From: Octopus sinensis
Lineage: Eukaryota
DNA: 64,000 bases
Assembly: GCF_006345805.1 (NCBI RefSeq)
Contig: NC_043001.1
Coordinates: 75,702,001-75,766,000 of the forward strand
Direction of reading: 5' to 3'
Shown here one piece after another: positions 22,173-52,659 of this stretch. The notes beneath the pieces are model-generated. The model saw nothing but the letters and a program-made list of their open reading frames with translations, was not told the DNA's origin and searched no databases. The first letter of the stretch is position 1, and each line of letters starts with the position of its first letter. A program made the translations under genes and the position numbers.

Positions 22173-22205
22173 TATATATATGCACGTACATATATATATA
22201 TATAC

Positions 22206-22266
<61 letters not shown>

Positions 22267-26680: not shown

Positions 26681-26748
<68 letters not shown>

Positions 26749-29249: not shown

Positions 29250-29307
<58 letters not shown>

Positions 29308-29308
<1 letters not shown>

Positions 29309-29603
29309 CTCTAAGTAATGTTGGCAAATGGAATTGGTATAAAAAATGAGTATTGTCAATTTAATTTTAAAATTCCATATGTGGCTGAAGATTGCTCTTC
29401 ATTTTAAAACTGGTGTAATACTTACATTGTTTAATTAGATGAAGTAGCATGAAACGATTGTACTACACTATCTTTGGATATCATTGTTGCTTATTTTGAT
29501 TATAATCACTCCATTTGATTTATATGGATAATACCATATCAAATCCTAATGCCTTTAACTTAAGTACCATATTCATCTGAATCTAAATTTTCCTGAACTT
29601 ATA
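29308..29603 (+). mobile_element. Hammerhead-bearing non-coding element inserted in (TA)n (copy 1 of 3)
   Basis: Shares ttgttgcttattttgattataatcac and taagtaccatattcatctgaatctaaatttt with 40902-41130 and 50885-51282. Confidence 0.8.
29380..29467 (+). ncRNA. Type-I hammerhead ribozyme with extended stem II
   Basis: TGTGG-CTGAAGA-[tgct/agca, cttcat/atgaag, tgtaa/ttaca hairpin]-GAAAC-GATT-GTA-CTACA: 5-bp stem I, intact core, GUA triplet. Confidence 0.75.
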
Positions 29604-29650
<47 letters not shown>

Positions 29651-29656
<6 letters not shown>

Positions 29657-30715
29657 GTCTGGGGAGAGTCTTTCTCTTTTAGTGCCTTATTATTTAACAC
29701 ACTCACCGATAAAGTTTCCACTTGTTTATTTATTTTTCCTAAAATTTTCGTTGCGTCTTGTTTTCAATCATTGTTGCAAGACGCAACGAACATTTTAGGG
29801 AAAATAAGTAACTGAGTGGAAACTAAACCGGTGAGTGTATTAAATAACAAGGCACTAAAAGAGAATGAGTCTCCACAGACACAACAGAATATGCTTCAAC
29901 ACACGAACCCACATAAAGAATCTTGCAAACTATATCCCAAAACGAAGTATATGTATATATATAAAAGAAGGAAGATGCACACATTTTTCATATACTTTTT
30001 AATATAATTTATAACTGAGAGAGTATTGTTTGTCGAAATTATGACATTGAAATTATTGGAATTTCGCATTTTCTTAAGAAAATTCTAGTCCATGTTGTGT
30101 ATGGAAGCTTGTAAATGAAATGAATCAACAGGCAGAAAAATCTAACGAGAGATAATTAGTGATTGATATTGTTTGGGATAAGGGCGGTCATTACTCATTG
30201 GGGGGGGATAAATATACAAAAACTCATAATGCTAAAGTAGTGAGATGAAATATTTACAGTCATGTGTATGTGAATATGAATGAAAATATATACTGAGATC
30301 AAAGATGGTTTTGCGTTCATATTTAGGTGTGCTCTGTATTTTTCGATAAATAAATTTTCTTTATTTAAACGTTCTTCTACAGAAATTCTTTCTTTGCATT
30401 ATTAGATGGGGAAAACTGAAGTTTAGTTCGATATTACCGGCACATCTCTATGTGTTCACTCAAAGTAATCTCTCTATACTGTGGTTAACGGATCTGTTCC
30501 TTATCTAGTGTGCTTCTCCATCTAAGTGCCATATTTGCCTGTCCTATACAGTTATGTCCACATCCTGAACAAGTTATCACAAATGTGGACGTCATAACTG
30601 TGGAGCATGCCCTAACCTGCAGGAAGGCTCAGAATTCCTATTCAAACAAGGAGATAGGTTCACAATTAAGACCAGTTTCACTTGTAACTCTGAGAATATT
30701 ATTTATGCGATAAAA
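29651..30715 (-). mobile_element. Neptune-type PLE 3' portion with terminal hairpin and 5' inversion
   Basis: Minus 30580-30310: VITCSGCGHNCIGQ..LSEHIE..KENLFIEKYRAHLN. Plus 30581-30715: KCGRHNCGACPNLQEG..FTCNSENIIYAI. ~110-bp IR 29651-29760 / 29777-29886. Confidence 0.85.
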
Positions 30716-31052
30716 AATATATTTAAAAATATCTTAAAACTGTGTGCATTTTTATTTTATTTTACATATATTTATTTCCACTACAACACACCACATGGGG
30801 TTAGCCGAAATTCTCCTCCTCCCTTTTTCTTACTATATATTTTTAATTTCCAAAAATAGTTAAGAGGGATATATAATCCTAGCGGTGCCGTGCTAGCACT
30901 AATCGGCTAAGATTGCTGACTAACCTCAGTAAATGTAGATGAAATCCAGTTATTTAAATTTACTATACCCGGTTGGGCCTCACTGTTATCGGTTATATAT
31001 ATATATATAATATATATATATATATAATATATATATTATATATATATATATA

Positions 31053-31330
31053 GCGAAGGTCTGGCTATGTAGTAAGTAGCTTGCTTACCAACCACATGGT
31101 TCCAGGTTCAGTCCCACTGCCTGGCACCTTGGGTAAGTGTCTTCTACTCTAGCCTCGGGCCGACCAATAGCTTGTGAGTGGATTTCGTAGATGGAAACGG
31201 AAAGAAGCCTGTTGTATGTGTGTATGTATGTGTGTGTGAATATGTTTCTGTGTCTGTATTTGTTCCCCCACCATCGCTTGACAACTGATGTTGGTGTGCT
31301 TACTCGACGTCCCTAACGGTTCGGCAAAGT
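31053..31330 (+). mobile_element. SINE family B
   Basis: Matches the family B head and core. Confidence 0.9.
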
Positions 31331-31419
31331 AGACCACTCGGCATTTTGTAAATCATTATCATCTTGTTTACGTCTGCTGGACATCGAATCATTTTAAGGC
31401 TGATTATCTCCTTTGCGAT

Positions 31420-31466
31420 CTTCTTCTTCTTCTTCTTCTTCTTCTTCTTCTTCTTCTTCTTCTTTT

Positions 31467-31498
<32 letters not shown>

Positions 31499-31505
31499 TT
31501 CTTCT

Positions 31506-31538
<33 letters not shown>

Positions 31539-31561
31539 CTTCTTCTTCTTCCTCTTCTTCT

Positions 31562-31593
<32 letters not shown>

Positions 31594-31636
31594 TTCTTCT
31601 TCTCCTTCTTCTTCTTCTTCTTCTTCTTCTTTTCTT

Positions 31637-31713
<77 letters not shown>

Positions 31714-31730
31714 CATTATTATTATTATCA
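31420..31730. repeat. (CTT)n-(ATT)n microsatellite
   Basis: Directly visible. Confidence 0.97.
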
Positions 31731-31789
31731 AGTTGAATCAAATTGTTTTCGTATTTCAAGCTTTAATTAACTGTCCAAACAAATTACAT

Positions 31790-32700
31790 ACGTAAAATGT
31801 TGTATCATCAGAATATATCCCACCATATTCCATTGGCTGTTACCATCGTTGTGTCAGAAGCTCAATTCCACGCTTATACAATTTGGCTGATTCAGATGCA
31901 AAACCTCCCTGGACCCGTTTTCAGCTTCATCCACTTTGTTGAACTTCCGTCCATACAGGAAATGAGCCATGACTCGGAAGCTCTGATGATGCAAAGTCTA
32001 GACGGTAAGTTGGGTGAGGCAGCATTTCCTCCCCATCAAGTTCCTCATCCCTGCCCTTGACCACTTTGGTAGTGTATATTGGGGCATTGTTATGTTGTAG
32101 GAGTCCACATCATCGGTTATCAGATACCGAGTAGTGGGCTTTTAAAGCATCATGTACTCGCTGCACTTGTTGAGCATAAAGGTTAGAGTTCACAGCATGA
32201 CCATCAGAGTCAAACTCAAATTCCACCAAATACAAAACATAACTGTCTGTTCAAACCGACCTCGTTTGACAATAGGTTTTGAAGCCTAGTTGGAACGAAG
32301 TCATTGATTTCTCTTATGAAGATTGCAAAATTCAATTTTCATCTCCAGTTACATTTCGATGCCAAAATCCAACATCTTGTGGCGTTTTCAGCAGCCGTTG
32401 CAACTGTTCATACGCCGTTGCGTTTGATCATTGGTTATTTCATGAGGAACTTCTCGAGAGCATCTGTTCACACGACCGAGCTTATGGACGTGTCAGTTGA
32501 TAGTGCTTCGTGAAAGACCAATTCTGCTGACAGTGTAAGCGTGCTTGTGTTTCGCTGTTGTTCATCCGTTTCAAGCAAAGCCTCATCTTTCACAACAAAA
32601 GGTCTCCTAGACCTTCATTTGTGCTTAATCCTTTTTACCACAGGTAGCATAAAATGGGTTTAATTGCATTTTTTTTACCACTCGTTTTCAAAAGTTTGAA
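31790..32700 (-). mobile_element. Degenerate mariner-type transposase remnant
   Basis: Minus strand LLQHNNAP (cf. LLHDNA) near 32080-32105 and an SPNL.PS.F-like motif near 31995-32025; many stops and indels. Confidence 0.6.
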
Positions 32701-32829
32701 GCAATAAATAACAACACCCCAGCCTCCCACAGAAGACTATCTAACAAAAATTTATTCCCATCAGTTCACTTCGAGGATAACCACTGGACGACCTTTGATG
32801 AAGCTGCACCGACAATATTGGAGGGTTGA

Positions 32830-34580
32830 ATTTACAAATGGGGTTATGGGGAGTGAGCTCGGAAAATACACACGATCAACCGTACAGAATCCGAGCAGTA
32901 AACCTCAACGCCCGGTCACAGAAGTGAAACAGAAATCGTCCAATACTTCCAGAGCAATGTATATTCAACAAATATTGAGAAAACAATGCGCGCTGACAAA
33001 CAGGGGCTCGGAATATACACACGACCAACCGTACAGAACCCGAGCTGTAAACCACAACACCCGGGCACAGAAGTGAAACCGAAATCGTCCAATACTTCTA
33101 ATGCAATGTATATTCAACAAATATTGAGAAAGAAATGCGCGCTAATAAACGGGAGTGTGAGGAGGGGTGTCAGAATATACACACTAACAACCGTACAGAA
33201 TTCGAGCAGTGAACCTTAACACCCGGTCACAGGAGTGAAACAGAAATCATCCAATACTTCTAAAGCAATGTATATTCAACAAATATTGAGCAGAAAATGC
33301 GCGCTTAGAAACGGGTGGGTGGGGAGAGGGCTCGGAAAATTCCCACGATCAACCGTACAGAATCGGAGCAGTAAACCTCAACACCCGTTCAATGGAGTGA
33401 AACAGAAATCGTTTAATACTTCTAATGCAATGTATATTCAACAAATATTGAGAAAGAAAAGCACGCTGACAATCGGGGGTGTGGAGTGGGGACTTGGAAT
33501 GTTCTCACAATCAACCGTACAGGATCCGAGCAGTAAAATTCAACACCCTTTCACAATAGTGAAAGACAAATCGACTAGTAATTCTATTACAATGTATATT
33601 CAACAAACTTTGAGTAAAAAATGCGCGCTAATAAACGGGGGTGTGAGAAGGGGGCTCGCAAAATACACGAGCAACCGAACAGAATCCGAGAAGTAAACCT
33701 CAGCACCCGGTCACAGAAGTGAAACAGAAATCGTCTAATTCTTCTAATGCAATGCATATTCAACAAATATTGAGAAAAATAGGCGCGCTGACAAGCGGGG
33801 GTTTGGGGAAGGGGCTTGGAAAATTCTCATGATCAACCGTACAGAATCCAAGAAGTAAACCTGAACACCCGGTCACAGGATTGAAACAGAAATCGTCTAA
33901 TACTTCTAATGCAATTTACATCAATAAATATATAGAAAGAAATGCGCGCTGACAAACGGGGATTTGGGGAAGGGGCTTGGAAATTTCCCACTATCAACCG
34001 TACAGAATCCGAGCAGTAAGCCTCAACACCCGGTCAGAGGAGTGAAACAGAAATCGTCCAATACTTCTAAAGCAATGTATATTCAACAAATATTGAGAAG
34101 AAAATGCGCGCTGATTAAACGGGGGTGTGAGTTGGGGCTGCGAAAAATCCGACGATCAACCTTACAGAATCCGAGCAGTAAACCTCAACACCCGGTCAGA
34201 GGAGTGAAACAGAAATCGTCTAATACTTATAATGCAATGTATATTCAACAAATATGTAGAAACAAATGCTCGCTGTGAAACGGGGGTGTGGGGAGGGGGC
34301 TCGGAAAATACCCACGATCAACCTTACAGAATCCGAGCAGTAAACCCCAACACCTGGTCACAGGAGTGAAACAGAAATCGTCTAATACTTCTAATGCAAT
34401 GTATCTTCAACAAATATTTAGAAAAATTGCGCGCTGACAAATGGGGTGGGTGGGGAGGGGTCTCGGATAACACACACGAACAACCGTACAGAGTCGGAGC
34501 AGTGAGCCTCAACACCCGGTCACAGGAGTGAAACAGGAATCGTCTTAAACTTCTAATGCAATGTATATTCAACAAATATT
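32830..34580. repeat. Tandem array of 11 ~161-bp units
   Basis: Anchor ccgtacagaatccgagcagtaaacctcaacacccggtcacag recurs at about 32880, 33029, 33191, 33353, 33515, 33675, 33837, 33997, 34160, 34322 and 34484. Confidence 0.97.
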
Positions 34581-34634
34581 TTTGGGTGACCAAACCACAC
34601 AACACACACACACACCCCACACACACACACACAC

Positions 34635-34688
<54 letters not shown>

Positions 34689-35343
34689 TACGACGGGCTT
34701 CTTAATGTTTGCGTCTACCAAACCCGCTCACAAGGCTTTTGGTGGCGCGATGCTATAGTAGAAGACACTTGACCAAGATACCACGCAGTGTGACTGAACC
34801 CGGAACCATGTGGTTGGTAAGGAAGCTCTTTACCACACAGTCACTCCACTCCTTTAATTTCTATACATTTCTCGAACACGTCCCCTCAAAACTCTCCCAC
34901 GCTGTTACCCCGAACACACTTCTCCTCAAAACTTATATTTTTTGTAACTTTCAAATAAAATGGAAAAAAAATCCTTAATTTCATATTGCTGTGGGAAAAA
35001 TACTCCGAAAGAAATCTTTCCAGAAATATGAGTAGATTGATTACACATTTCATTTCATTATGTTACCGCAGTTTTGTGAGATTTGGCTGTTATTTCTAGC
35101 ATGAAAATAGCTGGCTTGAGGCGTGGATATATATATGTATATATATATTTGAGAAATTGATGAGACAGTTTTGGTTCGGAGAAAATACAACCGATGGTAA
35201 GTACAGATTATTTTCATAATATTATTGATTGTAACAGAATACTTATTAATCGCAACTTCAAAATTTCAAATCCCCCCCCCCCCATTGCTTCAGTTTTCAC
35301 TTTTTGTTTGTAAAATTTCAATTTCTCAATATATATATGTATG

Positions 35344-35380
<37 letters not shown>

Positions 35381-37267
35381 CCCGCCTCAAGCCGGCTATT
35401 TTCATGCTAGAAATAACAGCCAAATCTCACAAATCTGCGGTAACATAATGAAATGAATTGTATAATCAATCTACTCACCTTTCTGCAAAGATTTCTTTCG
35501 GAGTATTTTTCCCACAGCAATATGAAATTAAGGGGTTTTTTTAAATTTTATTTGAAAGTTACAAAAAGATATATGAGTTTTGTCGAGAAGTGTGTTCGGG
35601 GAAACAGCCCTGGCGTGTTTTGAGGGGACGTGTTCGAGAAATGTTTAGAAATTAAAGGAGTGGAGTGGCTGGGTGGTAAGTAGCTTGCTTACAGATGGAC
35701 GTCTTTTGTTCGACTGCTTGATGTCACGTCTTTCGTCGTGAAATATTGAACTTTGAGGCTCAACTACAGGTAAGTGTTTGTTGTATTTTTTGAGGGCTTA
35801 GTGGAGTTTGTTGCCCTGTATTGAATATTTTTTGGTGAGCAACAATCTCCACTCTGCTCCAGACATTTGCCTGCCTGTGGTCGTGCATAAAGACTCACTT
35901 TGCAGTGAGAATTGTATTTTTTGAGGAGGCGTAGCCCCTACGCAAAACTTATCCGTCGGGGTCTGGGTGGCAGCGGAGCCAGGCTCTTGAATGTTAGAAT
36001 GCTTCCTGTGGCTAATTGGGTGGGGTAGAAAGCAATTTTGACCCTATGGACCCAATCAGCCAAAGATCTGGCCTTCCCAGATTTTCTAAAGATGGCCGGT
36101 TCTAGGTATCCGGTGACTCTTGAGGGACGCCCCCCCCCCACCAAGTGTCACCTGTGCCTGGAATCGGGTCAATTAGAGGAAGTGCCCCAACACCATGCAA
36201 AGGCACTGGAAAAACTAATAGAGGAGGATGTTGTTCCTCTAACGGATCCTCCTGGAGGTGTAGAAAAAGTCGAGGAGGAGGTAACCCCCTCGAAAGGAAA
36301 AAAAAGAAAGAAGGTGGACAACAATGGTTGCCCACCGATGGATCCCGTGGCGGCGGGAGGGAAGGAGGCATACGGACAAACCGGAGGAACCTCACTCTCC
36401 CGACGCGAAAAAGGGGAAAAAAGAAAAGAAAGAAAAACGGGGCATCGGCGGCATGTTCCGAAACCCCTTCGGTGGAACGTGAGCCACCGGAACGAGAGGC
36501 TCAGTCAGTGGGAATTGTGCCACTGACAGAGCCGGCTGAAGCCCCTCCCCGTGAAAAGAACGTGAAACCCGTCGTTTTCTACCTAAGCGAAGGGCCTGTC
36601 GAGAAGTGCTTCGACGGTCTTCTAGGCCGAGAACGATTGGACTCGGTTAGTATAGACTGCTCAGACTGGCCTCCGCAGGTGACTGCGGACGTCGTGAGTC
36701 AGAAGGAACTGTTCGAGGTCATGGTGACCTGTAATAAGGAAGATTTTGGTTTCCTCTTTCCGGGCCCCTACCTGCCGATGCAGGTTTTCCCGCAGGCGGC
36801 TTGGGATTTGCTTGGGGGCTCCGATGAGGAGGATTGATCTTATAGATTGTGTGTGTATTGAATATTTATTATATATAGTTGTAATGGACTATTAAGTCCA
36901 ATAATTGCTGTTTTTGATGGAAAAAAAAGAACAATGTTTTAGAGAAGCAGAAAATCGGCGGGCGTTTTCTGCTTTCTCTCATCAATATCATTCTTGTTTC
37001 ATCATTCACCTCATCAATGTATATGTCCTGCCCGCAAGCTACTCTTTGTAATGCCTTTATGGCAAATCTTAATGCAATAAAGTAGCTTCCTTACCAACCA
37101 CATGGTTCCCGGTTCAGTCCCACTGCGTGGTACCTTGGTCAAGTGTCTTCTACTATAGCCTCGGGCCAACAAAAGCCTTGTGAGTGGGTTTGGTAGACGG
37201 AAGCTTTAAGAAGCCCATCGTATATATGTATATAGGTATATATATATGTGTGTGTGTGTGTGTATGT

Positions 37268-37318
<51 letters not shown>

Positions 37319-37475
37319 TCCACCCAACAATATTTGTTGAATATACATTGCATTAGAAGTATTAGACGATTTCTGTTTCACTCCTGTGACCGGGTGTTGA
37401 GGTTTACTGCGCGGATTCTGTACGGTTGATCGTGGGAATTTTCCGAGTCCCCACCCTTGTCAGCGCGCATTTTTT
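34420..37475. repeat. Large inverted duplication (left arm ~34420-35160; right arm ~35318-35692 plus 37095-37475)
   Basis: Each arm holds a satellite unit, a SINE B 5' half and ~280 bp of unique sequence (34851-35135 versus 35374-35660) in mirror order. Confidence 0.92.
35693..37079 (+). mobile_element. ORF1/gag-only L1/Tx1-like retroelement inserted in a SINE head
   Basis: TSD aagtagcttgcttac (35678-35692) / aagtagcttccttac (37080-37094); FPDFLKMAGSRYPVTLEGRPPPTKCHLCLESG resembles an ORF1 zinc knuckle; frame ends GGSDEED* at 36837; 3' AATAA; no RT. Confidence 0.75.
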
Positions 37476-37631
37476 GGGGTCATATTCCTATAATATACGA
37501 TGCATTACACCTGTTACACATTTTCGTTTCCATTTTCCTCACCGGGTGCGGATCTGGATATTAACCCAAAAAAGTTATATGTATATGTATTTATGTACGT
37601 GTATGTGAAAGATGATATGTGTGTGTGTGTA

Positions 37632-37668
<37 letters not shown>

Positions 37669-39133
37669 GAGAGGGAGGGAGAGAGAGGGAGAGAGAGAGA
37701 GGAGAGAGGAGATGAGTGAGTGTCACTGGCACTTACATGCAAAAAAGTACATGCATGACAACACACCTTCTCTCTCACACACTCACACACTCACACACAC
37801 GCACGTCCATTTCATAGACATGTACATACACCTTTCACTTTCTCCTCTCTTTCAATTTCTGCTCTCTTCAGAGCATAAAGAAATAATTTTTTTACGGAAA
37901 TTAACGAACAGTCATAAGGTCGACCAAAGATCGAGTTGACAACTTTACTGCTTCAAACGAAAGAATGCAATAAAATAACTTCTTTTCGCTCACACATATT
38001 CACGCACACACACACACTCTCTCTCCCTCTCTCTTTAGGTGAAACTTCTGTACAAATTATGTTATTTCTTGCTGTGTGCACGCGAAAATTACGGCTCAAA
38101 TCCAAATGAAATCACTATTTTCTATTCTGTGGTTCATGTTTGTAAGGACCGTGTTTAAAATCCTGGTCTTCAACATAAACTTAAAAAGTTCTCCCAGAAA
38201 TCCTGTCCTTTAACTTTTGTTTCCAGCATGTTCAAGGTAACATTTGTGCCCCTCCCCCTGATTTTGTTCCTAAATTTCTTCCGATTCCTACGTTTTCAGT
38301 ACAGGGAATTAGGATTTCGCCCAAAAGGAGAGACTGATTATTAAATTTAGCTCATGTATGTGCATATACGCGACGCGCTTCCATACATTTTCCGTCAAGT
38401 AATTCACTCCTGAACCATTAGTCGTTCTGAAACACAAACCCGACGAATGTGCCATGCAGTGGGATCTAACCCGAAAGCTCATGACTGCAAATCTATTTGT
38501 TAACCATGCAACCACAACCGCCCCTTGGGGAGTTAAAATATTCAAGATACAGCAGAGGATACTCTCAGGAAATATTTTTTCGTATACATCTGTATTGTTT
38601 AACTGAATGAGCATATAGATTCTCGCCAATAGTTATCCATGTAGAAGTTAGAGAAAAGTTATACAATTAAGCTATATTTACGGAATATACGTAATTGGGA
38701 AACATAAAAAACTTACTAAAAGATATATACGTAAGACATTTAGTATGCACCATGTTATTAAAATACAATCTTACATGTATCTGAGACAGGAACGACGTGA
38801 CGCTATATTACTTGATCGTAATTTACGTGATGAAGTAGATAAGCAGAACAATCCGATAAAATTCATTGGAGAATTATATTGTGCTTTAAGGAAGCGGTAC
38901 AAGCAGAAAATACTCGCACACACTTGTACATACACACACACACACACGTACGCACACACACATAGAAAGAAATAGTCATAGATACATATACGTATATATG
39001 AAGATAAACATATTGCCATATATATATATATTATATATATATATATATATCACATATGTGCATATGTATATGTGTATGTATATCTATATCCATGTATATA
39101 TATATATATTTATATATATACACATACACAACC

Positions 39134-39190
<57 letters not shown>

Positions 39191-39734
39191 TCAGGGAGAG
39201 AGGAAAAAAGAGAGAGAAAACAGAATGACACACGCAGAGAGAGTAAGGGGGAATCAGACTAGAAACTAAAGTCTAGCAATGAATAAAGTTACATACAAGA
39301 GTTAAATACAAGAGAGATGAGGCAGGATATCAAGGTAGATTATTATCGAAAAACCTAGACAAGAAGGAATCAATTGCGTAATGGTACCTAGATGCATCTC
39401 AACAAACACAAACTCACTGAATGCAACAACAGAGAATGAAAGAAATTATTATGAAAACCTAGAGGGTGAATGTTTGTGTTAATATTAAAAAACGGAAGAA
39501 TGAAAATTGAGAATTAAACTATTTTACTGCAAAAAATTTATATTATGATTGTGTAAAGTAGAAAGAAAAAGTAGACAAGGAATAGTTAAAGAATATAATT
39601 GATTTTTTATCCATATAAGTTATGTAATATCCATACTGGAACGGAAATATAGCGGTAGATAAAAGTAGACATAAGCATAAATATATGTTCATACTTATGT
39701 GTGAGCGTGTCAATATATGTATGTATATATATGT

Positions 39735-39791
<57 letters not shown>

Positions 39792-39980
39792 GCATACACA
39801 CATGCGCACACACAGACACAATAACACACAGACAAGTATATACATACACAATTATATGTTGATATAGAAAGAGACGGATGAGAGAGAAAAAGATGCATAT
39901 GCATATATACTTATGATACATCATATATTTATATATATATTATATATCTGCCTATCTATCTATCTATCTATCTATCTATG

Positions 39981-40020
<40 letters not shown>

Positions 40021-40079
40021 AATCTATCTATCTATCTAATCATATACATACATATGATGTGTTTTATTCGCCATTGAGG

Positions 40080-40516
40080 CACTATGAAACTAATATAGCA
40101 TCTACATATCATACTCAATAGACCGGGCATAACAATTATAGATGAGGAAAAGCGAAGTTGCTTACTAATCAACACATCATGCCCGTTTGATTACAGGATC
40201 GTAAAAAAGGAGGGCGAAAAACAAAAAATAAAAATACAATCCCTCAAAATTTGAAATATGTAGAATTTGGAGCCCGTTGGGAACAGTAAGCAAAGATATT
40301 GACACATTGCTGAAGAAGATAGAAATAGAATGCCCAGTAGATCTCCTATGGAAAGTTTGTCTTTTAGGGGAGGTAACGATTATCAGGAATGTTCTAAGCA
40401 CATGAAAAACAGCTGAACACTTATGGATACCTAAGGTTACAGCTAGTAACCCACTACCCAAATGAATCTTTCAAGGAATAAGACCGAACCTGAGCTAAAC
40501 CAAAATAATAATAATA

Positions 40517-40559
<43 letters not shown>

Positions 40560-40560
40560 T
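40080..40560 (+). mobile_element. 3' end of R4/Dong-type LINE running into (TAA)n
   Basis: NRPGITIIDEEKRSCLLINTSCPFDYRIVKKE..LKFEICRIW (RLE PD-D region), then 3' UTR and (TAA)n, the known Dong target. Confidence 0.75.
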
Positions 40561-40820
40561 CCTTTATCCCTGAGTATTCGAAAATGTAAACATCCTTTTC
40601 ATTGCAAAAGTCCTAGTGCATTCTCCAAATCGACAGACAAACGAACATCTCAAGAAAACTTAAAACTTTAGTATAATACCCAAATACGTAAACACGCCTT
40701 TTATTACAACAACACAATAGAATTCAGAAATTCAACGACGTGATTATCAGTATAGATGTATATATATATATAGTATATATATATTATGTGTGTGTGTGTA
40801 TATATATATATATATAATAT

Positions 40821-40880
<60 letters not shown>

Positions 40881-40901
40881 TTATATATATATATATATAT
40901 A

Positions 40902-41130
40902 CAGATGAATATGGTACTTAAGTTGAGACACAGAATTTAGTACGTTACTATCCATACAATTTCAATGTAAGGTGATTGAAATCAAAATAAGCAACAAGGA
41001 TATCCAAAGGTAATGCAGTAGGATCGTTTCATGCAACTCCATTTAATTGAACAATGCAATCATTACATCAATTTAAAGTGCAGAGCAATCTTCGGCTGCA
41101 CAAAGACATAGAATTTAATTAAAGTAAAAG
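40902..41130 (-). mobile_element. Hammerhead-bearing element (copy 2), motif at 41014-41100
   Basis: Minus strand TGCAG-CCGAAGA-long hairpin-GAAAC-GATC-CTA-CTGCA. Confidence 0.75.
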
Positions 41131-41229
41131 AGATCGACACATTAGTATAATTATACCTAAAATCTCCAAGACGTTAAGGAGATAGACAAAAAACATGCTG
41201 CCTTCACTCCGGCATAGAAGCTACGAGTA

Positions 41230-42818
41230 GTTTAGTCGCTCTGTTAAGACCCTCCGTTTCCGGTTTTAAATCACTTTTAGTCATCCACAGCCATCTTTTA
41301 TCTCTGTCTATCTTATCTTCAAAATCCCTACGAAATTTTCCGTGCATTCTTTTCTTTACCAACCTATTTTAAGTTTCATTCGTTTTCAAGTGATTGTATA
41401 GTGCTTAATTTTTGCACTCTTTCATCCTTCATAAGCCTGACCTTCTTACTTCTAATAATGACGGTTCTGAGGCGTTTTTTTACTACCAAGCTATGTTGTT
41501 TTCTTCGACTCTAATGCTGTTTTCGCATCCTATCAGTCCTCTTCCTCCTTTGTTTACTTGGTACATACAGTCTGTCTGCGACACTTTTTGGGTGGAGCAT
41601 CCCATATCTAGTTAGCAACTTCCTTGTCTTTCTGTCTAAGCTGTTTAATTCGTCTACTGTCCATGAGATTATCCCTGCTCTATATATAAGTAGTGAAACC
41701 ACCCAGGTGTTAATAGCCTCGATCTTATTCCGTCCGTGTAATTTCGACTTAAACATCAGGTTCACTCTGCGCAAGTACTCCACTTAAATTTTTGTCATAT
41801 CTTTCTCCATCAATTTGTCCATTTCCAATATCCCCAAGTAATTATAGCCCGCCTCTTCTATCTGCTAGCCCGTCCATACATTTGATTTTGCCTCTCTTCA
41901 ATACTAACAGACTACACTTTTTCAGTCCGAACTCCATTCTGATATCAGCACTGAAAGTATATACCGTATCAACGATGGAACTGTCTTGGGCTTCAACTTT
42001 ACCATAAAATTTGAGGTCATCCATGAATAATAAGTGGTTGCCGTTTTGTTGGCGACTCTTTAAGACATACCCAGCATTTTCTTTCCTCAGAATCAGTGCT
42101 AGTGGTATCATGCACAGTACAAAGATCAGTGGCGACAGGCAGTCCCCTTGGAAGATGCCTCTCCTGATTTCTATTGTCCATAACCTTCTTCCGTATGCTG
42201 TCCACTTCGCCATACTTTTTCCAAGCAATCGCTCAACATTCGATGCAACACCAAATAGGTTCCTACATTCCATAATCCAAGAATGTGGGATCATATCGTA
42301 CGCCTTACGATGATCGATCCATGACATGGCTGAGTTAGTTTTCCTCCTCTTGCACTCTCTAAGTACAGTTTTGTCTATCAGAAGTTGACGCTCGGTGCCT
42401 CTGCACTTACGCTTTGCAACCCTTCTGCTCATGTTGCAGGACTCCATTTTTCTCCAGATGTCCGTACATTGATTCTGTGGCTATTCCAGTCAATAATTTC
42501 CACATAATTGACAGGCAGGATATCGGCCTGTAATTGTCTAACCGTATTGCCTTTATCGATGCTTTTCAAGCACAGTACTTTCCTACCCATTGTTAACCAC
42601 CCTGGTGTTACTTGGTCAGCATTGAACAAGGAAGATTTGGTGAATGTCATGCAGGAGTAGCTGCACGATAATTACCAAATCTTTTGATCCAGTAACCTTG
42701 AACTCCATCGGGTCCCGGAGCCTTCCAGTTGCTCATTTTTTGCTGATTTCCTTCACTTCTCTAACTGAAATGAATAGTTCTCCCTGTTGTTTGTTTCAGA
42801 TCTTGCAACCATTCAGCA
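41230..42818 (-). mobile_element. R4/Dong-type non-LTR retrotransposon RT fragment
   Basis: NWKAPGPDGVQGYWIK, WIDHRKAYDMIPHSWI, RGIFQGDCLSPLIF, HLLFMDDLK, GMLHPKSVADRLY; frameshifted. Confidence 0.9.
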
Positions 42819-42985
42819 TGTGAGAGTACCAGTTGAGCATTGGGGACGATATGATCGATATAATCTCTCCCTCGAAAATTTCGGGTCTTTTATCAAACTT
42901 TGAAGCCATTATTACTACTGGGGTCGATGTAATCGACTGATCACATCCTCTCCCGAAATTGCTGGCCTTGTGCCCAAATTTAAAC

Positions 42986-42986
<1 letters not shown>

Positions 42987-43016
<30 letters not shown>

Positions 43017-43075
43017 TATCATTATTATTATTGTTGTTGTTGTTATCATCATCATCATCATCATCATTATTATTA

Positions 43076-43131
<56 letters not shown>

Positions 43132-43180
43132 CATCATCATCATATCACCATCCTCATCCTCTTCATCATCAAAATAATCG

Positions 43181-43251
<71 letters not shown>

Positions 43252-43270
43252 TTCATCACCATCATTATAA
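42987..43270. repeat. (TTA)/(GTT)/(ATC)n compound microsatellite
   Basis: Directly visible. Confidence 0.96.
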
Positions 43271-44059
43271 TATACATAGCTACCAAGAATTCAGTCACTG
43301 CATTTTATTTTCCTACTTCCATAATTTCTTTCCAGAATTTGTTTTCTTTCAAATCAGAAATATTATTTCTATATTATTCTTTAATAAATCTACTTGTTCC
43401 ATTTAACAATCATTTCTTGTGGTTTTCATTCCTCTTTTAAAAACATTTCGATTGATATGTAAACTTTCACTCTGATGGAGAAGCCATGTTTTGCATTGCG
43501 AAAATTATGATTCTGTAATTCTTTTTATAGGTATGTACACACACACACACACACAAGCACACAAACACACCCACACCGACAAACACACACTCAGATACAT
43601 ATATATATACATATATTATATACAAATATATATATATACATATCATATGTATATGTCTATATATATATGTACACGCATACATACATGATATATACACATA
43701 CATATATATATTAATATATAAGTATATATATATATATATTGATGTATGTATATATATATATATATTAATATTCAAATATTTTATATGTATATGTGTATGT
43801 GTGCTTGTGCAAATGTTTGTGTGTGTATGTATGTATGTATGTATGCATATATACATATATATATATATATATTCATTCGTTCAAAGCAGTGTAAAATTTG
43901 TTGTGTTAAATCAACCATTCTTTGCCTAAATTGAATTCCTGTAAGAGTTTCTATCATAAATGAAAAATAACATTTCATATTTTTATTTTTATTTATTCAC
44001 ACACAGACACACACAGACACACACACCACACACACACACACACACCACACACATACATA

Positions 44060-44116
<57 letters not shown>

Positions 44117-44316
44117 TATATATGTTTATATATGTTTATATATTTATTTATCTGTTTATTTGACTATTGAAACAACATTCAGCCTTTGCCAACGTGAAAT
44201 AAAATTCACAGGGATTGATCGCTTGATTCCAGATGAACGGTTCTAAGTCCTCTGTAGAAGAAAAGAGAAACACCCGGGGGGTAAGGAAAAATACCTTGAG
44301 GTGTATAGTAACGTTA

Positions 44317-44560
44317 GTGAAGGCGTGTGATATACTGGTAAGGATAAAAAGTTCGTGATTTCTCTATACTTGGACCCGGGACTGCGTTTTGCTCTTGAGT
44401 GAGACCTTTCCTTCGACGTTCCTCCAATTCATTCTGCTCGCAATACATAATCCTGCGAAGGGCTGGAGTCCGGTTTAAGGGAAAAGTTGTAATCTTAGTC
44501 CCTTATACGCCATAGAAACTGGGTCACATATGGCCCTAGGAGTCCTAAGATTCAAGACAA
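44317..44560 (+). mobile_element. SINE family C (degenerate)
   Basis: Similar to the copies at 18979 and 58608. Confidence 0.55.
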
Positions 44561-45506
44561 TAATGTCTGGGGCTCGATGATAATGAAGACGATGGTGATG
44601 ATGATGAAGATAATGATGACGATGACAATGACAGCGACGGCGGCGACGACGACGACGACGACAACGGCGACGATGATTATGGTGCTGATTATGGTGATCA
44701 TGTCTTTGTTACTGCTGAGTCGACAGATAATCGTTTGGTATACAATGACATCACATTCTAATCTAATTGTATTCGTTTACTGGGTTCAGATCACGTTGGA
44801 AATAGTTTTGATTTTTATTTTCCTCTCCCTGTTTCATAACATGAATGGAAAACTATTTTCCGTTCAGATTAAAACCATAGGGAAAAAATTATCTCCTTTT
44901 TTTTTATATAACTTTTTAGTTTTTTTAATCATGATAAACAATAATTATGAGAGTAAGAGAAGTTAGTGAAGGAAATGGCAGAATCCAGAATTGGCGGAGA
45001 CCTTTGTCGAGGGTCTGCTTCCTCACCAAATAATCCAAGAGTAAATACAGCATTTAAAAAAAGGATAGTTACTGAGAGGGAACGAAACGATATATATTTC
45101 AACAACAGCACAGAAGATCCTCGCATGTATACTATTTGATTAAGTGTCAGGCAGGACTACGTTATGGGTTCAAATCCGATAGAGGTATGGTCTAGTGTTT
45201 ATCTTTTTCGGATTGCAGAACTAATTATCAGTACGGCAGGAGTCTATTCAATAACCGAATAACACAAACGGGTGTCTTTAAACCCAGTTCAGACATCTTT
45301 ATCAGCGAAATGTGTATACATACATAGATTTAATCTGTCTTTATTTGTTACAATCATTGGACTGCGGCCAATGCTAGGTCGCCACCTTGAAGGGTTTTAG
45401 TTAAACAAATCGACTCTAGTACCTATGTTATTTTTTCAACTGGTATTATTATAGCGCTAAGAAGGGAAAAGCTGTAATTTCTGGATGTCTGGTTTTCAAT
45501 TTGACT

Positions 45507-45590
45507 GCATGGCCGCAGTCAAATAACTTAAACATTTAAAAGAATAAAAGAATATATAACTATGTGCATATATTTACTTATGTCTGTATC

Positions 45591-45621
<31 letters not shown>

Positions 45622-45643
45622 CATGTATTTACCTATCTATCTA

Positions 45644-45698
<55 letters not shown>

Positions 45699-45706
45699 TA
45701 TATAGC

Positions 45707-45770
<64 letters not shown>

Positions 45771-45870
45771 TATACATACAAACATGCATACATACATAAG
45801 TAAATATATACACATATTTAGACATTCTTTTATTCTTTTAAATGTTATATTCATTTGACTGCGGCCATGC
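45507..45870. repeat. ~95-bp inverted duplication around a (TA)/(TAGA) microsatellite
   Basis: gcatggccgcagtcaaat..acatttaaaagaataaaagaat..tatatttacttatgt mirrored at 45775-45870. Confidence 0.85.
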
Positions 45871-46696
45871 TGGATCACCGCCTTTCAATATATATATAAA
45901 TTTAAATTGAAAACCAACTAATTGAACTACCGAGAAGATTTATGAATAGTACGCCAATCTATGTTCCCGATTAACCCAGGAAAATCAAACTGAATGCTGA
46001 TTATTGTGGAGTCGTTGCATTTTAATGATCATAGAACATATAAATTTGCAAGCCATGTAAAGTAGAGGTGCTGAAGTGTTTTGGGAGTAGATTACGGATA
46101 ATGACTACAAAATATAGTTGTTTTACAGGAAAGCGAAATTTCTTGTCAGAAACAGCCACAAAAATAGTGTAATGAAATTGAAGGAAGTCCTTGAAACTTC
46201 CCCACTGCTTGTTTATTTTTTTCAACAGCAAAGGAATCTATTTTTCGGAGACATAAGCTAACAAAAGCCCCCTTTATTCTGTCTTCCTACATAACCGCAC
46301 ATAAATTAACAGCGAATGCTGCATAAAATTAAATTGACATGAAGCTTTCTGAAAGATACGTATAGCTTTCGTAAGTGGAAACAAAGCTCTTATGTAAAGG
46401 TTGATTCTTTAGGACGAGTCATATACGATTGTTTAAAAAAAAGGCTAGTACGACAATACTAAAACGTATTTGAAACAATGGACAACAGTCGGACTATCAT
46501 AATGGAAGGGTAAATAAGCACCTTTACAGTGAAACAACGCATTGGTAGGTAAAGAAATGTATCGAGAAATATAAGATAGAAGGAAGGAAACATCACCTTT
46601 CAAGTAACTCAGAATACGCAAACGTAAGCTTGCCAAAGTTTAATGCAGTTTAAATATGGAGATTAAGATTGTTTGGTATTAGATATTCATCGCATA

Positions 46697-46992
46697 CAGT
46701 GTTCCTAGCCAATTTAACCACTGTGGCAGGTGGTCAGTCGAAAAAAATAGACAAAAGCCTTTCACTTTTATAAAAAGATTAAAAAATTAATGAAGACCCT
46801 ACATACAAAAGTAATATGTCCATTTAGGTCCATTTACGCGGGAGCTCTGGGCAAAATGTTTAGTGTATGACCATCCTTGGGACATAAGTAATGTGAGTGT
46901 AAATTTTGATAAAAATAGGTTGGGAATTGTGGAAATGTATGCGTTCAGTGTTCCTAGTCAATTTAATCACCGATGCAGGTGGACAGTGGAAA

Positions 46993-47027
<35 letters not shown>

Positions 47028-47068
47028 ATAGACAAAATCCTTTCACTTTTATAAAAAAGATTAAAAAA
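46697..47068. repeat. ~90-bp direct repeat, ~250 bp apart
   Basis: cagtgttcctag.caatttaa.cac..gcaggtgg.cagt..aaatagacaaaa.cctttcacttttataaaa at 46697 and 46946; the second copy has an (AAAT)n expansion. Confidence 0.85.
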
Positions 47069-47357
47069 CATAAATGCACATACACTTACAAACCGACATA
47101 CACATACACGCAAACACACTCATGCATACACAGACACTAACGCACACAGACAGACATACACACACATATGTATGAAAAAATACGAATGGCTTTTCTGATA
47201 ATTTTACCACGTTAGTAATTAGATGCTTAAATACCTTATGATTTATAGACATCTATTTACTGATGTGGAAAATTATCAGAAAAGCCATTTCTCTACCTCC
47301 TTCCTATGTGTATGTATGTACATATGTATGCATGTATGTATGTATGTATATATTGCT

Positions 47358-47424
<67 letters not shown>

Positions 47425-47549
47425 CTATATACATATGTGTGTAATGATACATATGTATGTATATATATATAGGGAGAGAGAGAGTGTGGAAGAAAGGGAT
47501 AGTGAGAGACAGATTGACAGAGATAGAGAGATAGATAAATGTAAATATA

Positions 47550-47580
<31 letters not shown>

Positions 47581-47810
47581 CATATATACATATGTGTGTA
47601 TGTATACATATGTATATATATAGAGACAGAGACAGAGTGAGAGACAGATAGACAGAGATAGAGAGATAGAGAGATGTGTATGTATGTATGTATGTATGTA
47701 TGTATGTATGTATGTATGTATGTATGTATGTGATGTATGTATGTATGTATGTATGCTGTGTATGTAGGATGTAGTATGTATGTATGTATGTATGTAGATA
47801 GATATGGGAG

Positions 47811-50800
47811 CAAGTGCTACAACTTAGCAAACACTAACATAACAAGTGCAACATAAGCAAGTTCCTAATTTCGGCAAGTGCCATCTCACTAAGTCCTGCA
47901 CAAAAATGAAAGTATTGATCAGCAGAAATTGACCTCTTAACCTTTGAATTATCAACTATAATAACCTTAAAAACCGGCTAAACTAACTGCTACAATTTGT
48001 AATCCGGTTATAAACAACTTTCAAAAAATTAAATTTTTTAAAAATAATTTCACACTTTGAAAAATGGAAATTGAAATGAAAATTGTAGAAACGCAAAGAG
48101 TTAAAGACGAAATTCTCTATTGAGGGCATTCATACAGGGGCTGGAACGAAAACGGAAAGTACTGTTTGCTCTAGATGCTGCGATGGCAATTGTTCTTGAT
48201 CGATTTCAACGCCTCTGAACGAAAAGTTAAAGAATGTCACCTTCATAACCACGTACCAGCCCTTGCTATACAAAAAGTCGAGAAAGGCTTAAACAATATG
48301 GCATCCGAAGCCGTTACCACGCAGGTACCTCATCCCCGAACAATAAGTGATACACTACTAGGTACGACAAAAGAAGGATTGGTTCGAGTTCCGAAACGAA
48401 AGGCGTTGACAAGCAGAATCCAGAGGGAACTCAAGGCAAGTTGAAGTAGAGCTTCCACCAGAACAGCAACGGCCGCTGACTTGATGATCCACGCACAGTA
48501 CTAAACTGCAACTCACGGAGCTGATGAAGTCAGATTCTTGTAAGAAGATGCGTCTAGTGTACCAGATCAAATTTTTATTTTTCCTACTGACAGCATGCTT
48601 AGACAGGACAAGCCACAACCATCATGTGCGACGGTACATTCACAATCGCGCCAAGGCAATTTTAGCAGATTTATACGGTGCACTTCATAAAGCTCGTCGT
48701 CGTGTTAGCCATTATTTATGCTGTTTTTCTGTCCTAAGCTCAAGCTATTTATGACCGTTTGTGTGACGTTATACTGTGTCAGCTTCCTAACTTTTCACTT
48801 CAATATGCAGACTTTGAAATAGCAGCACTGAAGGCTCTCAGACAGGTCTTCTACAACTGTCAATTACAAATTTGTTTCTTTTTTCCCCTTTTCGGGAGCT
48901 ATATGGCGGAAAATCCAGGCACTTGGACTACATCGAAAATGAGCAGGTGAGGCACAATAGTTTGTGCGCTATGGCGCTTCTACCGGAAGCGCTTGTTGTA
49001 AATGTGTATGAAAACAAGATATATCTCAAGCAAATATTGCCACTATGAATTTACAGCCCTTAGTTTCATACTTTGAAGAGACTTCAGGCCCACTTTTTTC
49101 CCTTAATTTATGGAAAGGCAGAGAATGAACACCAAAAGGAATCCCAAGACAAATAAATCAACTAGAAGGATGGCACAGGAGAACACGGACATAATCTGAT
49201 TGTTCTCAACCTACTACTTGGAGGTTCATTAATGGTTTTAAGGAAGAAGCCCTGCAACATGCAGCTTTGCTACATATTCTTATAAGCGAAAATGCCCCAG
49301 CTTCAAGAAAAGAACAAAGAGATATCAACTCAAGGATTTCAAGCCTTATTGAACTCCACACCAACCGTGCAGTGAGGACAAAAGACTTCTATTGCTGTAT
49401 TGCTTACAACATCATCATGAATGTCTGAGTGATAAACTAAAAATTATTAAAGTATCTCTCTCTATATAAAATGCACTTTGTCTGTCTGTGTGTCTGTCAG
49501 GTTGTACCCTCACCCTGACCACGGATTTCAACCGATTCTGATGAAACTTGACACACACATAGCCCAATGCCATAATTCAAAACTAACGCAGCGAAAATTT
49601 TGAAACGTTTCCCCAGTTCTGAAAAAATTGATAAATTCGACATGGGGTCGAGAATTTAAGCTTTTCATATGCAACACATTTTCTGTTATAGTTTTCGCAA
49701 CTTGCAATCGATTTTCACCAAACTGCAATCGATTTTCACCAAACTAACATGGTGAAGCTTAATGTTACCCTAAGAAACTTAATTCTGACGTTACTTTTCC
49801 ATGCAATACCTTACCATCAGAAAAATTCGATAAAATCATGCCATTTTGGAAAATCGCGTTCAAATTCAAGATGACATATTTTCAACATTATCTTTAACAA
49901 ATTGGCAGGAATTTTTTTTTAAATTCACTGCGAGCATCATGTCTGCTCCAAGGAGCTATATGGCCCTTTTTATCCCAATATGATACTGTATTACTGGAAA
50001 AAATCGGTAATTAAATCATATGTGGCACACATAGCAAACAGATTTGTGTATTAAACACAAACCACAGACTGTCTAGGAGACGCAACTCGACCTTCTTTAA
50101 CTCTCTTACTCCCCCAAATAACTATCAAACAGCTATCGATAATTCAACCCACAGGGGGAAATCTAGACTTAATCTTCAAGGTATCCCACATACAAACCAA
50201 AGATTACATCGAAATCTCCAGACTAAACTAAGTTTTGGTGAACCAATTCCTACCAGGAAGAAATTACATTCGAGACTTTACCCCCAACACCGCCAGTCCA
50301 TCAATAAATCCCAAGGCCAAACGCTACAAGTCGCTGGGTTACATTTGGGCGAACAGTGCTTCGCCCACGGTCAACTCTACGTGGGCTGTTCACGCGTTGG
50401 GAGGCGCAATGATGTTTTCATGTTTTCGCCCAAAGGGACAGCTAGTAACGTCGTATACACAGAAGTATTCGAGTGAAGAGAAGACATTGCAACCTATACA
50501 TACGCCTTCGTTCCCTAGCGGGAAATGACTAGATCGGGATTAGTCGTTGCCAACTAGGGGCTCTTACATACCCGGGCAACGCCGGGCTATGCTGCTAGTA
50601 TAGTAATATTTTTGCCTTTATATCCTGTGTTTAAACACAGCTTGCTGAAATGGTGCTTGCTGATTTCAGGCATTTGCCATATCGAAGGGACTTGTTGAGC
50701 TGGGCAATGCGAAATTGGTAACTTTCTTGGTTTGTACTTGCTATGTTAAAGCTTGCTAACAGGTGGCACTTGGTGAAATGTTAAAATGTTATCTGCTAAA

Positions 50801-50843
50801 ATTCTACTTGTTGAGATTTTATTTGTTCAGTTAGGGTGCAATC
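47811..50843 (+). mobile_element. Degenerate MULE (Mutator-like) transposon with TIRs, interrupted by a Helitron
   Basis: HNHVP, CDGTFTIAP, ADFEIAALKALRQVF..QICFF and QLEGWHRR motifs at 48230-49200; 47811-47897 is inversely similar to 50688-50772. Confidence 0.75.
49455..50598 (+). mobile_element. Non-autonomous Helitron
   Basis: Inserted between A and T; 5' TC plus (GTCT)n; 3' hairpin cccgggcaacgccggg then CTAG at 50595-50598; no TSD. Confidence 0.88.
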
Positions 50844-50849
50844 GATAGA

Positions 50850-50884
<35 letters not shown>

Positions 50885-50886
<2 letters not shown>

Positions 50887-51275
50887 AATTATAAGTTCAG
50901 CAAAAATTTAGATTCAAATGAATATGGTACTTAATTTAGATGCGCCAGAATTTTGTATGGTGTTATCCATAAAAATCCGTGGGGTGATTATAATCAAAAT
51001 AAGCAACAAGAATGACTCCGGTAATTTGGTACGATCGTTTCGTACTACATCATTTTATTAAATGTTGTAAGTATTACAAATGATTTAAGATGGTGACTAT
51101 CTTTATAGAGGTTTCCCATTAATACAAAATTTTTTGTATTAATGGAAAACCTCTATAATTGGCTAATGAGTACTCAGCATCTTAAATCTGTTGTAATACT
51201 TACAACATTTAATAAAATGATGTAGTACGAAACGATCGTACCAAATTACCGGAGTAATTCTTGTTGCTTATTTTG

Positions 51276-51282
<7 letters not shown>
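50885..51282. mobile_element. Hammerhead-bearing element (copy 3) as a ~295-bp foldback; motif at 51156-51248 (+)
   Basis: Arms 50988-51128 / 51133-51281; TTGG-CTAATGA-GTACT..AGTAC-GAAAC-GATC-GTA-CCAA; (TA)n on both flanks. Confidence 0.8.
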
Positions 51283-51871: not shown

Positions 51872-52198
51872 TGTGTGTGTGTGTGAATTCTTTCTTAAAA
51901 TATTACAGTGAAATGTTGTTATATTGAACCTTGAAAACTATTGTATATTAATTACTTTAGTCTTTTGCGCTATACTTTTCCGCATTAATCTGATTTATTG
52001 CTTTCGTACGATTTTCTTTGCTGTAGTTTCCATTCTATGGGTTCTGCATCAACGAAATGTGATTAATTTACATTGAATAACTTCCTTTCATCCTTTGCAT
52101 GTTCGCAGATCTGTGTATACTAGTTAACAGTTGCAAGCTTTGTTGTAATACAGTGTTGTATCAAATAGTATATATATGTATATATATATAATATATAT

Positions 52199-52277
<79 letters not shown>

Positions 52278-52570: not shown

Positions 52571-52631
<61 letters not shown>

Positions 52632-52659
52632 ATATATATATATGCACACACGACACACA

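Follow-up and report, generated by a model that had tools for sequence, protein, structure and literature searches.

A 64,000-nucleotide stretch of the Octopus sinensis genome (contig NC_043001.1 of assembly GCF_006345805.1, forward-strand positions 75,702,001 to 75,766,000; hereafter the window, numbered from its first letter) contains three sites that have the strand order of a type I hammerhead ribozyme, with GUA at the cleavage site, and a truncated fourth. We consider it quite probable that these are hammerhead motifs located close to a 3' end which Hydra-clade Penelope-like retrotransposons share with ~300-bp non-coding elements, and that such motifs likely cut the element RNA after GUA, probably as dimers or with the help of the element's protein. 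The hammerhead features of the window are the following.

29380..29467, + strand: hammerhead copy 1, the only window copy with every core residue kept; it matches the intact family A core
29380-29384 / 29463-29467, + strand: copy 1 stem I, TGTGG/CTACA
29385-29391, + strand: copy 1 core box CTGAAGA (in RNA, CUGAAGA)
29392-29450, + strand: copy 1 stem II hairpin, with base TGCT/AGCA
29451-29454, + strand: copy 1 GAAA
29454-29461, + strand: copy 1 stem III, ACGAUUGU
Between 29462 and 29463, + strand: copy 1 predicted cut after GUA
41014..41100, - strand: hammerhead copy 2, decayed; stem I 41100-41096 / 41018-41014, TGCAG/CTGCA
41095-41089, - strand: copy 2 core box CCGAAGA (U4 to C)
41021, - strand: copy 2 stem III, GAUCCUA, with C here where family B has G; the C-C mismatch breaks stem III
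Between 41019 and 41018, - strand: copy 2 predicted cut
51158..51245, + strand: hammerhead copy 3; stem I 51158-51162 / 51241-51245, TTGG/CCAA
51163-51169, + strand: copy 3 core box CUAAUGA (G5 to A), the rest being family C consensus
Between 51240 and 51241, + strand: copy 3 predicted cut
50902..51135, - strand: fourth copy, a family C arm with the long 3' tail, reference positions 707-950

All copies have the order stem I 5' strand, CUGANGA, stem II hairpin, GAAA, stem III, H17 and stem I 3' strand, so that helix I is open and helices II and III are closed, as in type I. In the window sites the octamer after GAAA is ACGAUYGU, followed by A and the stem I 3' strand, and stem II is 58-60 nt long at all three. 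A preliminary description of this DNA had reported a three-copy hammerhead family with an extended stem II; the helices and coordinates it gave for the three sites could all be located, as could both forms of the stem II base (TGCT/AGCA and GTACT/AGTAC) and, in 3/3 copies, the TGTAA-nnn-TTRCA apex. The motif stood at each site. The core changes of copy 2 (U4C, with the stem III mismatch) and copy 3 (G5A) had gone unmentioned. Nor is it a family of three, since a fourth copy lies in the window and thousands more in the genome (below). That fourth copy is oriented head-to-head with copy 3 in a self-comparison of the window, by which 50989-51281 is an 88.7% palindrome; it is without the stem I 5' strand and the CUGANGA box and retains the distal part of stem II and GAAAC GAUC GUA, with a would-be cut site between 51030 and 51029.

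We searched the animal's own genome (2.7 Gb in 13,516 contigs) at the DNA level with each copy as query, and name the relatives of copies 1, 2 and 3 families A, B and C, respectively. Of the first-look candidates, 40 per query were scored, with these results.

Copy 1 query (family A): 2133 first-look candidates, best matches 92-94% identity
Copy 3 query (family C): 1621 first-look candidates, best matches 98-99% identity
Copy 2 query (family B): 1254 first-look candidates, best matches 93-95% identity

The majority cores are CUGAAGA...GAAAC GAUU GUA in family A, CUGAAGA...GAAAC GAUC GUA in family B and CUGAUGA G...C GAAAC GAUC GUA in family C. As these are canonical, copies 2 and 3 are read as decayed members of their families and are likely dead insertions, and copy 1 matches its family core, differing from a consensus-like family A unit by a few changes in stem II. 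The G-to-A core change of copy 3 is also present in three other loci (L032, L033 and L035). Of the copies in which the core is covered, 25/36 in family A, 20/35 in family B and 31/37 in family C have the strict motif intact, and the CUGANGA box is found in 32/35 of family B and 31/37 of family C. A strict pattern applied to the whole genome (CTGANGA, 56-60 nt, GAAACRATYGTA) gave 3843 + 4020 = 7,863 matches, and the same pattern reversed, used as a control, gave 0 + 1. A pattern with a gap of 20-50 nt, run on the window, matched none of the copies and did match two unrelated sites. Contigs of four sequencing runs, of uncertain kind and under four organism codes, also contain the family C end (L037:1392-1775) at 85-100% likeness, so the family is apparently common to several related organisms; compared with that family C end, these contigs gave no ends and no informative joints, and most of the word depth fell on the shared tail.

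To compare lineages we sampled 40 regions downstream of endonuclease open reading frames (ORFs) with 59-94% amino-acid identity to the query, and found the strict long-stem-II motif in 29 of them. A MAFFT alignment of 40 sequences (A1) was then made from diverged lineages, consensus-like copies of families A, B and C, and the three window copies. Each of 12 core columns is kept in at least 38 of the 40 sequences (38-40), which bears out a hammerhead family; averaged over the columns, identity is 79%. Of the window copies, copy 1 has the full conserved core C3 U4 G5 A6 N7 G8 A9 and G12 A13 A14. All 40 sequences have A in column 81, U in column 88 and A in column 89, so that the site reads GUA, with the A15.1-U16.1 pair and a non-G H17 in place. 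The AU-rich middle of stem II, where MAFFT gaps are unreliable, was left out of the covariation count. For the remaining 22 pairs of the hammerhead structure 93.5% of the cells pair, compared with 29.7-52.5% when the partners are slid by 1-3 columns, and changes on both sides are found in 11 of the 22 (stem I 3/5, stem II base 5/7, stem II apex 2/7, stem III 1/3). Pair 23/70 occurs as GC, AU, UA and GU, pair 22/71 as CG, GU, UA and GC, pair 38/52 as CG, UA, AU and GU, and pair 8/91 as AU, GC and GU. The covariation score is 0.440, against 0.055-0.111 in the slid controls, and was reached by none of 500 shuffles; RNAalifold, given no hint of the structure, recovered the stem II base and the apical hairpin (13 pairs, 7 with compensatory changes). 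The earlier statement that pairing is kept while sequence changes is upheld by all of these measures, in an alignment larger than the three copies on which it was made. Stem II alone folds as one long bulged hairpin in 12/12 lineage representatives, with z-scores of -1.15 to -5.10 (10/12 at -2.1 or lower). The motif is more than chance.

In every lineage stem II is a bulged hairpin of 58-60 nt with roughly 20 pairs. Published values, which we take from excerpts of the two papers concerned, are 4 bp for helix II of canonical animal type I hammerheads and 7-8 bp, called 'larger than usual', for the minimal hammerhead ribozymes (min-HHRs) of Penelope-like elements (PMC4209133), 3-7 bp with a loop of 3-10 nt in the Hydra rows of File S2, and 7 bp + 8 nt in the single octopus entry, Hydra-1_oBim (PMC8557442). 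Set against these 3-8 bp, the stem II described here is, as had been supposed, atypically long for Penelope-like hammerheads. Its base in families A and B (U-UGCU...AGCA-U, with an extra U on each side) mirrors the cnidarian 'ctgatgat tgcc ... ggca tgaa' in the excerpted table of PMC8557442, as if the small loop of a cnidarian-type stem II had been replaced by an extension of roughly 50 nt.

Parts of this arm are conserved beyond their pairing. In alignment A1 the apex UGYAAUAYUURCA is kept in sequence itself, and the 3' strand has a bulged U in 39/40 sequences and an A-rich loop, AAUAAA or AUUAAA, in 33/40. These three features suggest a binding or docking role for the arm. Ordinary type I hammerheads use a tertiary contact between loop I and loop II; here the apical loop lies far from the core, so that such a contact, if made, would need an internal bulge or loop. 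AAUAAA and AUUAAA are also the two common poly(A) signals. They stand in A1 columns 54-66 (51212-51217 in copy 3), about 26-30 nt before the predicted cut, and copy 1 itself has neither, reading AAUUAGA in the 29433-29438 region; the stretch may be only an A-rich internal loop.

The Rfam hammerhead models gave 0 matches in the window at the gathering score, and with E up to 10 no hammerhead was among the 3 and 139 matches returned for copy 1 and three consensus-like loci; the long stem II is the likely reason for this miss. In the literature, a comparison outside of which Repbase and Dfam fall, we found no description of a long-stem-II hammerhead in Penelope-like elements. The association of hammerheads with Penelope-like elements, including the Hydra clade, is a known one, here in a variant for which we found no description in print.

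Stem III is an 8-nt palindrome, ACRAUYGU. Its third pair (columns 83/86) is AU in 26 sequences, GC in 9, GU in 4 and broken in 1; it would close a 2-nt loop if it were intramolecular, yet it is retained. When two family A or two family B copies are cofolded, the lowest-energy structure joins them through stem III into a double hammerhead, which is 7.6-9.8 kcal/mol more stable than two separate monomers. A dimer model of this kind has been put forward for animal type I hammerheads (PMC4209133); under it, stem III here would pair between two molecules. Folded whole, the window copies are mildly better than their shuffles (z -1.43, -2.39 and -2.10).

The three hammerheads lie in two kinds of carrier, as follows.

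29307..29603, + strand: non-coding element of family A, 297 bp, with (TA)n on both sides (about 29250-29306 and 29600-29650)
40897..41224, - strand: non-coding element of family B, about 328 bp, ending in (TA)n at about 40800-40900
51100..51281, + strand: family C arm with the short 3' end (...TTTTGATTA then (TA)n), locus L165, reference positions 683-863

The family A element of the window matches positions 1-297 of the reference family copy at 91.6%, and an alignment of 29 loci gives the family sharp common ends next to (TA)n, with the hammerhead at unit positions 79-156. The ends of the family B element were taken from homology to 29 loci, the commonest 5' end being 41224 (10 matches). The family C arm at 51100..51281 is the 5'-truncated 3' untranslated region (UTR) end of a coding element that is assigned to the Hydra clade by its motifs (below). 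Family C copies are 5'-truncated at many positions; they reach upstream into a 740-nt 3' UTR and then into the end of an ORF, which resembles the Pfam GIY-YIG domain (E 2.3e-4; 21.8 bits, just below the 22.6 cut-off) and has 19,350 first-look candidates in the genome, 150 of which were scored.

Longer relatives of this ORF end have open frames of 709-922 amino acids. No reverse transcriptase was found in a Pfam scan of the 922-residue ORF (L106), so that its clade assignment rests on motifs. The ORF has RWK at 30, DKT at 117, CNCRIKSKC (CxCx5C) at 794, CQLC (CxxC) at 885 and CIH (CxH) at 915, and further FIQFD, YRDD, FLDIT, SNHPP, IIWLNIPF and a GIY-YIG-like motif; YRDD, FIQFD, FLDIT and SNHPP align with the Hydra rows in the excerpted supplement of PMC8557442. 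According to the same excerpts, Hydra-clade proteins are marked by RWK, by DKT instead of DKG, by a CxCX5C linker and, around the conserved E and N of the endonuclease, by CxxC and CxH, and the elements insert into (TA)n and carry a canonical hammerhead. By these motifs the family C carrier is assigned to the Penelope-like elements of the Hydra clade. With the 922-residue ORF and a 1.2-kb 3' UTR, the coding elements measure about 4.6 kb, and the ORFs of L100, L102 and L105-L107 have an asparagine-rich, low-complexity insert of >150 amino acids between the IIWLNIPF region and the endonuclease. Insert and UTR make these elements much longer than the published Hydra-clade entries, which the excerpted text describes as 'generally <3 kb' (PMC8557442).

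The hammerhead ends 41 nt or about 128 nt ahead of the two alternative 3' ends of the element. The 3' UTRs of coding elements end with the hammerhead and tail of families A and B (...ATTCTTGTTGCTT..., ...TATAATCACCCCA..., ...TTCTGGTGCC...AAGTACC...), and the region downstream of the endonuclease ORF in L123 bears a family A-type hammerhead. This common hammerhead and tail argue that families A and B are non-coding derivatives that retain the 3' end of the coding elements, and by virtue of carrying that end they would be copied by the Hydra-clade reverse transcriptase.

The insertions follow a consistent pattern. In many loci an inverted, 5'-truncated partner arm abuts the main copy, and inverted partner arms and (TA)n flanks are both hallmarks of Penelope-like elements (Craig et al. 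2021, PMC8557442, as excerpted). Family C arm pairs are cut at near-equal positions (746/746, 744/746, 799/797 and 622/627), and the partner arm invariably stops at the first of the two 3' ends (...TTTTGATTA, with (TA)n next to it), which precedes the long end by about 87-100 nt. The insertion record at the arm-pair loci among L148-L177 (L148, L170, L173 and L169, for example) is very regular. In a Poseidon-clade element the protein cleaves both strands of the DNA and extends each of them, and it begins reverse transcription at two internal positions (PMC11167929); activities of this kind, cutting on both strands and two start sites, would account for the twin arms and the pair of 3' ends. Most copies found with the tail as seed are single or in inverted pairs. 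Same-strand tandems also occur, with a period of 192 bp in L032/L033 (family C, G000:C10:87502001-87502323), and the strict-motif list for contig C1 has same-strand neighbours 311 and 398 bp apart. One further same-strand pair is 4,627 bp apart, a distance that would fit a tandem full-length coding element (a pseudo-long terminal repeat, or pLTR).

Several known systems can be compared with these hammerheads and their carriers. With the Hydra-clade elements of PMC8557442 they have in common the protein marks RWK, DKT, CxCx5C and CxxC/CxH; in the excerpted tables, in contrast, stem II has 3-7 bp and a 3-10 nt loop where here it has 58-60 nt, and stem III has 3-4 bp and a 1-3 nt loop where here it is the palindrome ACRAUYGU. 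Like the canonical animal type I hammerheads and min-HHRs described in the excerpts of PMC4209133, they have a short helix III with a small palindromic loop, which was read there as a sign of dimers, and occur in thousands of genomic copies that form consensus families with compensatory changes; unlike those, they have a helix II several times longer, with conserved internal loops. The animal non-LTR retrozymes (PMC7229834; 10.64898/2026.07.22.740005; both as excerpted) are likewise short non-coding units with a type I hammerhead, and are thought to be mobilised by the enzymes of Penelope-like elements and to have arisen from their terminal regions. Tandem arrays and plentiful circular RNAs define a retrozyme (PMC7229834, in the same excerpts), whereas the copies sampled here are mostly dispersed singles or inverted pairs, 5'-truncated, with tandems in the minority.

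A further parallel is PAc, a Poseidon element of the green anole (PMC11167929), in which the hammerhead lies next to a stem-loop region that is used by the PAc protein. Reverse transcription of PAc has two starts, with an optional tail of 30-40 bp, and here there are two 3' ends about 87-100 nt apart; both DNA strands are cut and extended by PAc, which would explain the inverted arms here. PAc belongs to a different clade, however, and its hammerhead overlaps the start of the ORF, whereas here it is in the 3' UTR. Protein-assisted cleavage has been shown for PAc (PMC11167929), where the hammerhead cut only with its protein present, and may apply to the octopus elements as well.

Self-cleavage after GUA is predicted and likely, and the element RNA would be cut there either as a dimer or with the element's own protein; the long stem II, with its apex and A-rich loop, would serve outside the catalytic centre as a platform for protein binding or folding. 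Several points weigh against this reading. Cutting rests on prediction, and its footprint in the genome is weak. We mapped the 5' ends of truncated copies found in searches with the tail only. Of 64 such copies, 9 begin between 7 nt before and 3 nt after the site, where about 4 would roughly be expected. In family A, for which the query began 2 nt after the predicted site, 4/18 start 0-3 nt after it; in family C 4/29 start at the site or up to 6 nt before it, two of them (L161 and L168) exactly at C1.1; and in family B 1/17 starts 7 nt before it. The 5' ends would accumulate in the same way if the reverse transcriptase stalled at the structure. Inverted partner arms do not begin at the cleavage site, their 5' ends being spread over reference positions 43-839. 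In one Penelope-like element studied in vitro, mutation of the ribozyme left insertion normal, and none of the RNA-seq reads ended at the site (PMC11167929). The whole motif of family C, and of some other lineages, has as its lowest-energy fold a competing, non-hammerhead pairing; together with the help given by protein in PAc, this competing fold makes protein help plausible. As to covariation, the aligned sequences are related by descent, so that shuffle counts overstate significance, and the G-C to A-U change in stem III sits on two CpGs, where independent CpG decay could mimic covariation.

Three other explanations were weighed. It might be thought that an AT-rich repeat has come to contain CUGANGA and GAAA by chance or inherited resemblance, with no selection on the structure. 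Even with E up to 10 the Rfam hammerhead models do report nothing, the z-scores of the window copies, folded as whole motifs, are only -1.43, -2.39 and -2.10, and, as family members are young and alike, copy number by itself proves nothing. We nevertheless regard this explanation as very improbable indeed: the reversed pattern has 1 match against 7,863, pairing collapses to 29.7-52.5% when partners are slid, pairs 23/70 and 38/52 each show four pair types, and the motif is located where Hydra-clade elements reportedly carry their hammerhead. A core that has become a passenger is harder to dismiss, and we judge it unlikely; the long hairpin would then be the functional recognition element for the reverse transcriptase and the hammerhead core would no longer cut. 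In stringent LINE/SINE pairs (long and short interspersed elements), 3' stem-loops are recognised by the reverse transcriptase. The apex and the A-rich loop of the 3' strand are conserved in sequence itself, the non-coding families retain exactly the hammerhead-plus-tail block of the coding elements, and in a Penelope-like element the protein-binding and initiation sites lie in a stem-loop beside the hammerhead, whose cutting is dispensable in vitro (PMC11167929). A mere passenger, however, would not have kept 12 columns invariant, with the adjoining stems changing, in lineages whose endonucleases have fallen to 59% identity, and covariation is seen too in stems I and III, whose sole use is in the ribozyme fold.

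The short elements might alternatively spread as small circular RNAs, in the manner of retrozymes: two hammerheads in a tandem transcript would release a unit that is then ligated, and a Penelope-like reverse transcriptase, primed at (TA)n, would copy it, leaving one unit between two (TA)n. Such a route would account for the (TA)n on both sides of the units and fits the same-strand tandems (192 bp in L032/L033, and the neighbours at 311 and 398 bp); the weak stem III fits cutting only as dimers, in multimeric transcripts, and a 2026 preprint, in its excerpts, derives animal retrozymes from the pLTRs of Penelope-like elements (10.64898/2026.07.22.740005). Most sampled copies are nevertheless single or inverted pairs, and the gradients of 5' truncation, like the near symmetry of the inverted arms, are what linear, target-primed copying would leave in (TA)n already present, the known target of Hydra-clade elements; a ligated junction would be colinear with the genome. 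We therefore think that this route is quite unlikely, and favor a hammerhead at the 3' end of Hydra-clade elements and their non-coding derivatives that likely cuts as a dimer or with the element's protein. A more specific version of this favored reading, which we offer only tentatively and as rather doubtful, is that stem II is a protein-docking arm, with the apex and the AAUAAA/AUUAAA loop as contacts. It would make the ribozyme a protein-gated hammerhead in which the arm replaces the lost loop-loop contact, and would be a tag for the ~300-bp parasites that hijack the Hydra-clade reverse transcriptase.

The role of hammerheads in Penelope-like elements is still described as unclear (PMC11167929, and the excerpts of PMC8557442). 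Here a whole lineage, including thousands of non-coding derivatives, keeps a stem II several times longer than in the published tables, as far as these were excerpted, and its retention across endonucleases diverged to 59% identity points to a job for the arm, in folding or in protein binding. The lineages form a natural series of covarying variants in which hammerhead action without the usual loop-loop contact can be studied. Since Rfam misses these motifs, and descriptors with a short stem II probably do so too, current counts of animal hammerheads and retrozymes may be too low, and such elements may be among the many 'unclassified SINE' families that have been described from octopus genomes.

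Two minor observations concern the rest of the window. Right after the (AT)n of copy 1, positions 29645-29892 (248 bp) match their own reverse complement at 83.5%, and this repeat recurs at 15825-16121 (86.6% over 179 bp); it is probably a twin-armed insertion of a different family. (TA)n, the insertion target of these elements, is very frequent in the window, for example at 22100-22300, 26650-26745, 39730-39790, 44050-44140, 47360-47460, 52170-52280, 52560-52645 and 63050-63125.

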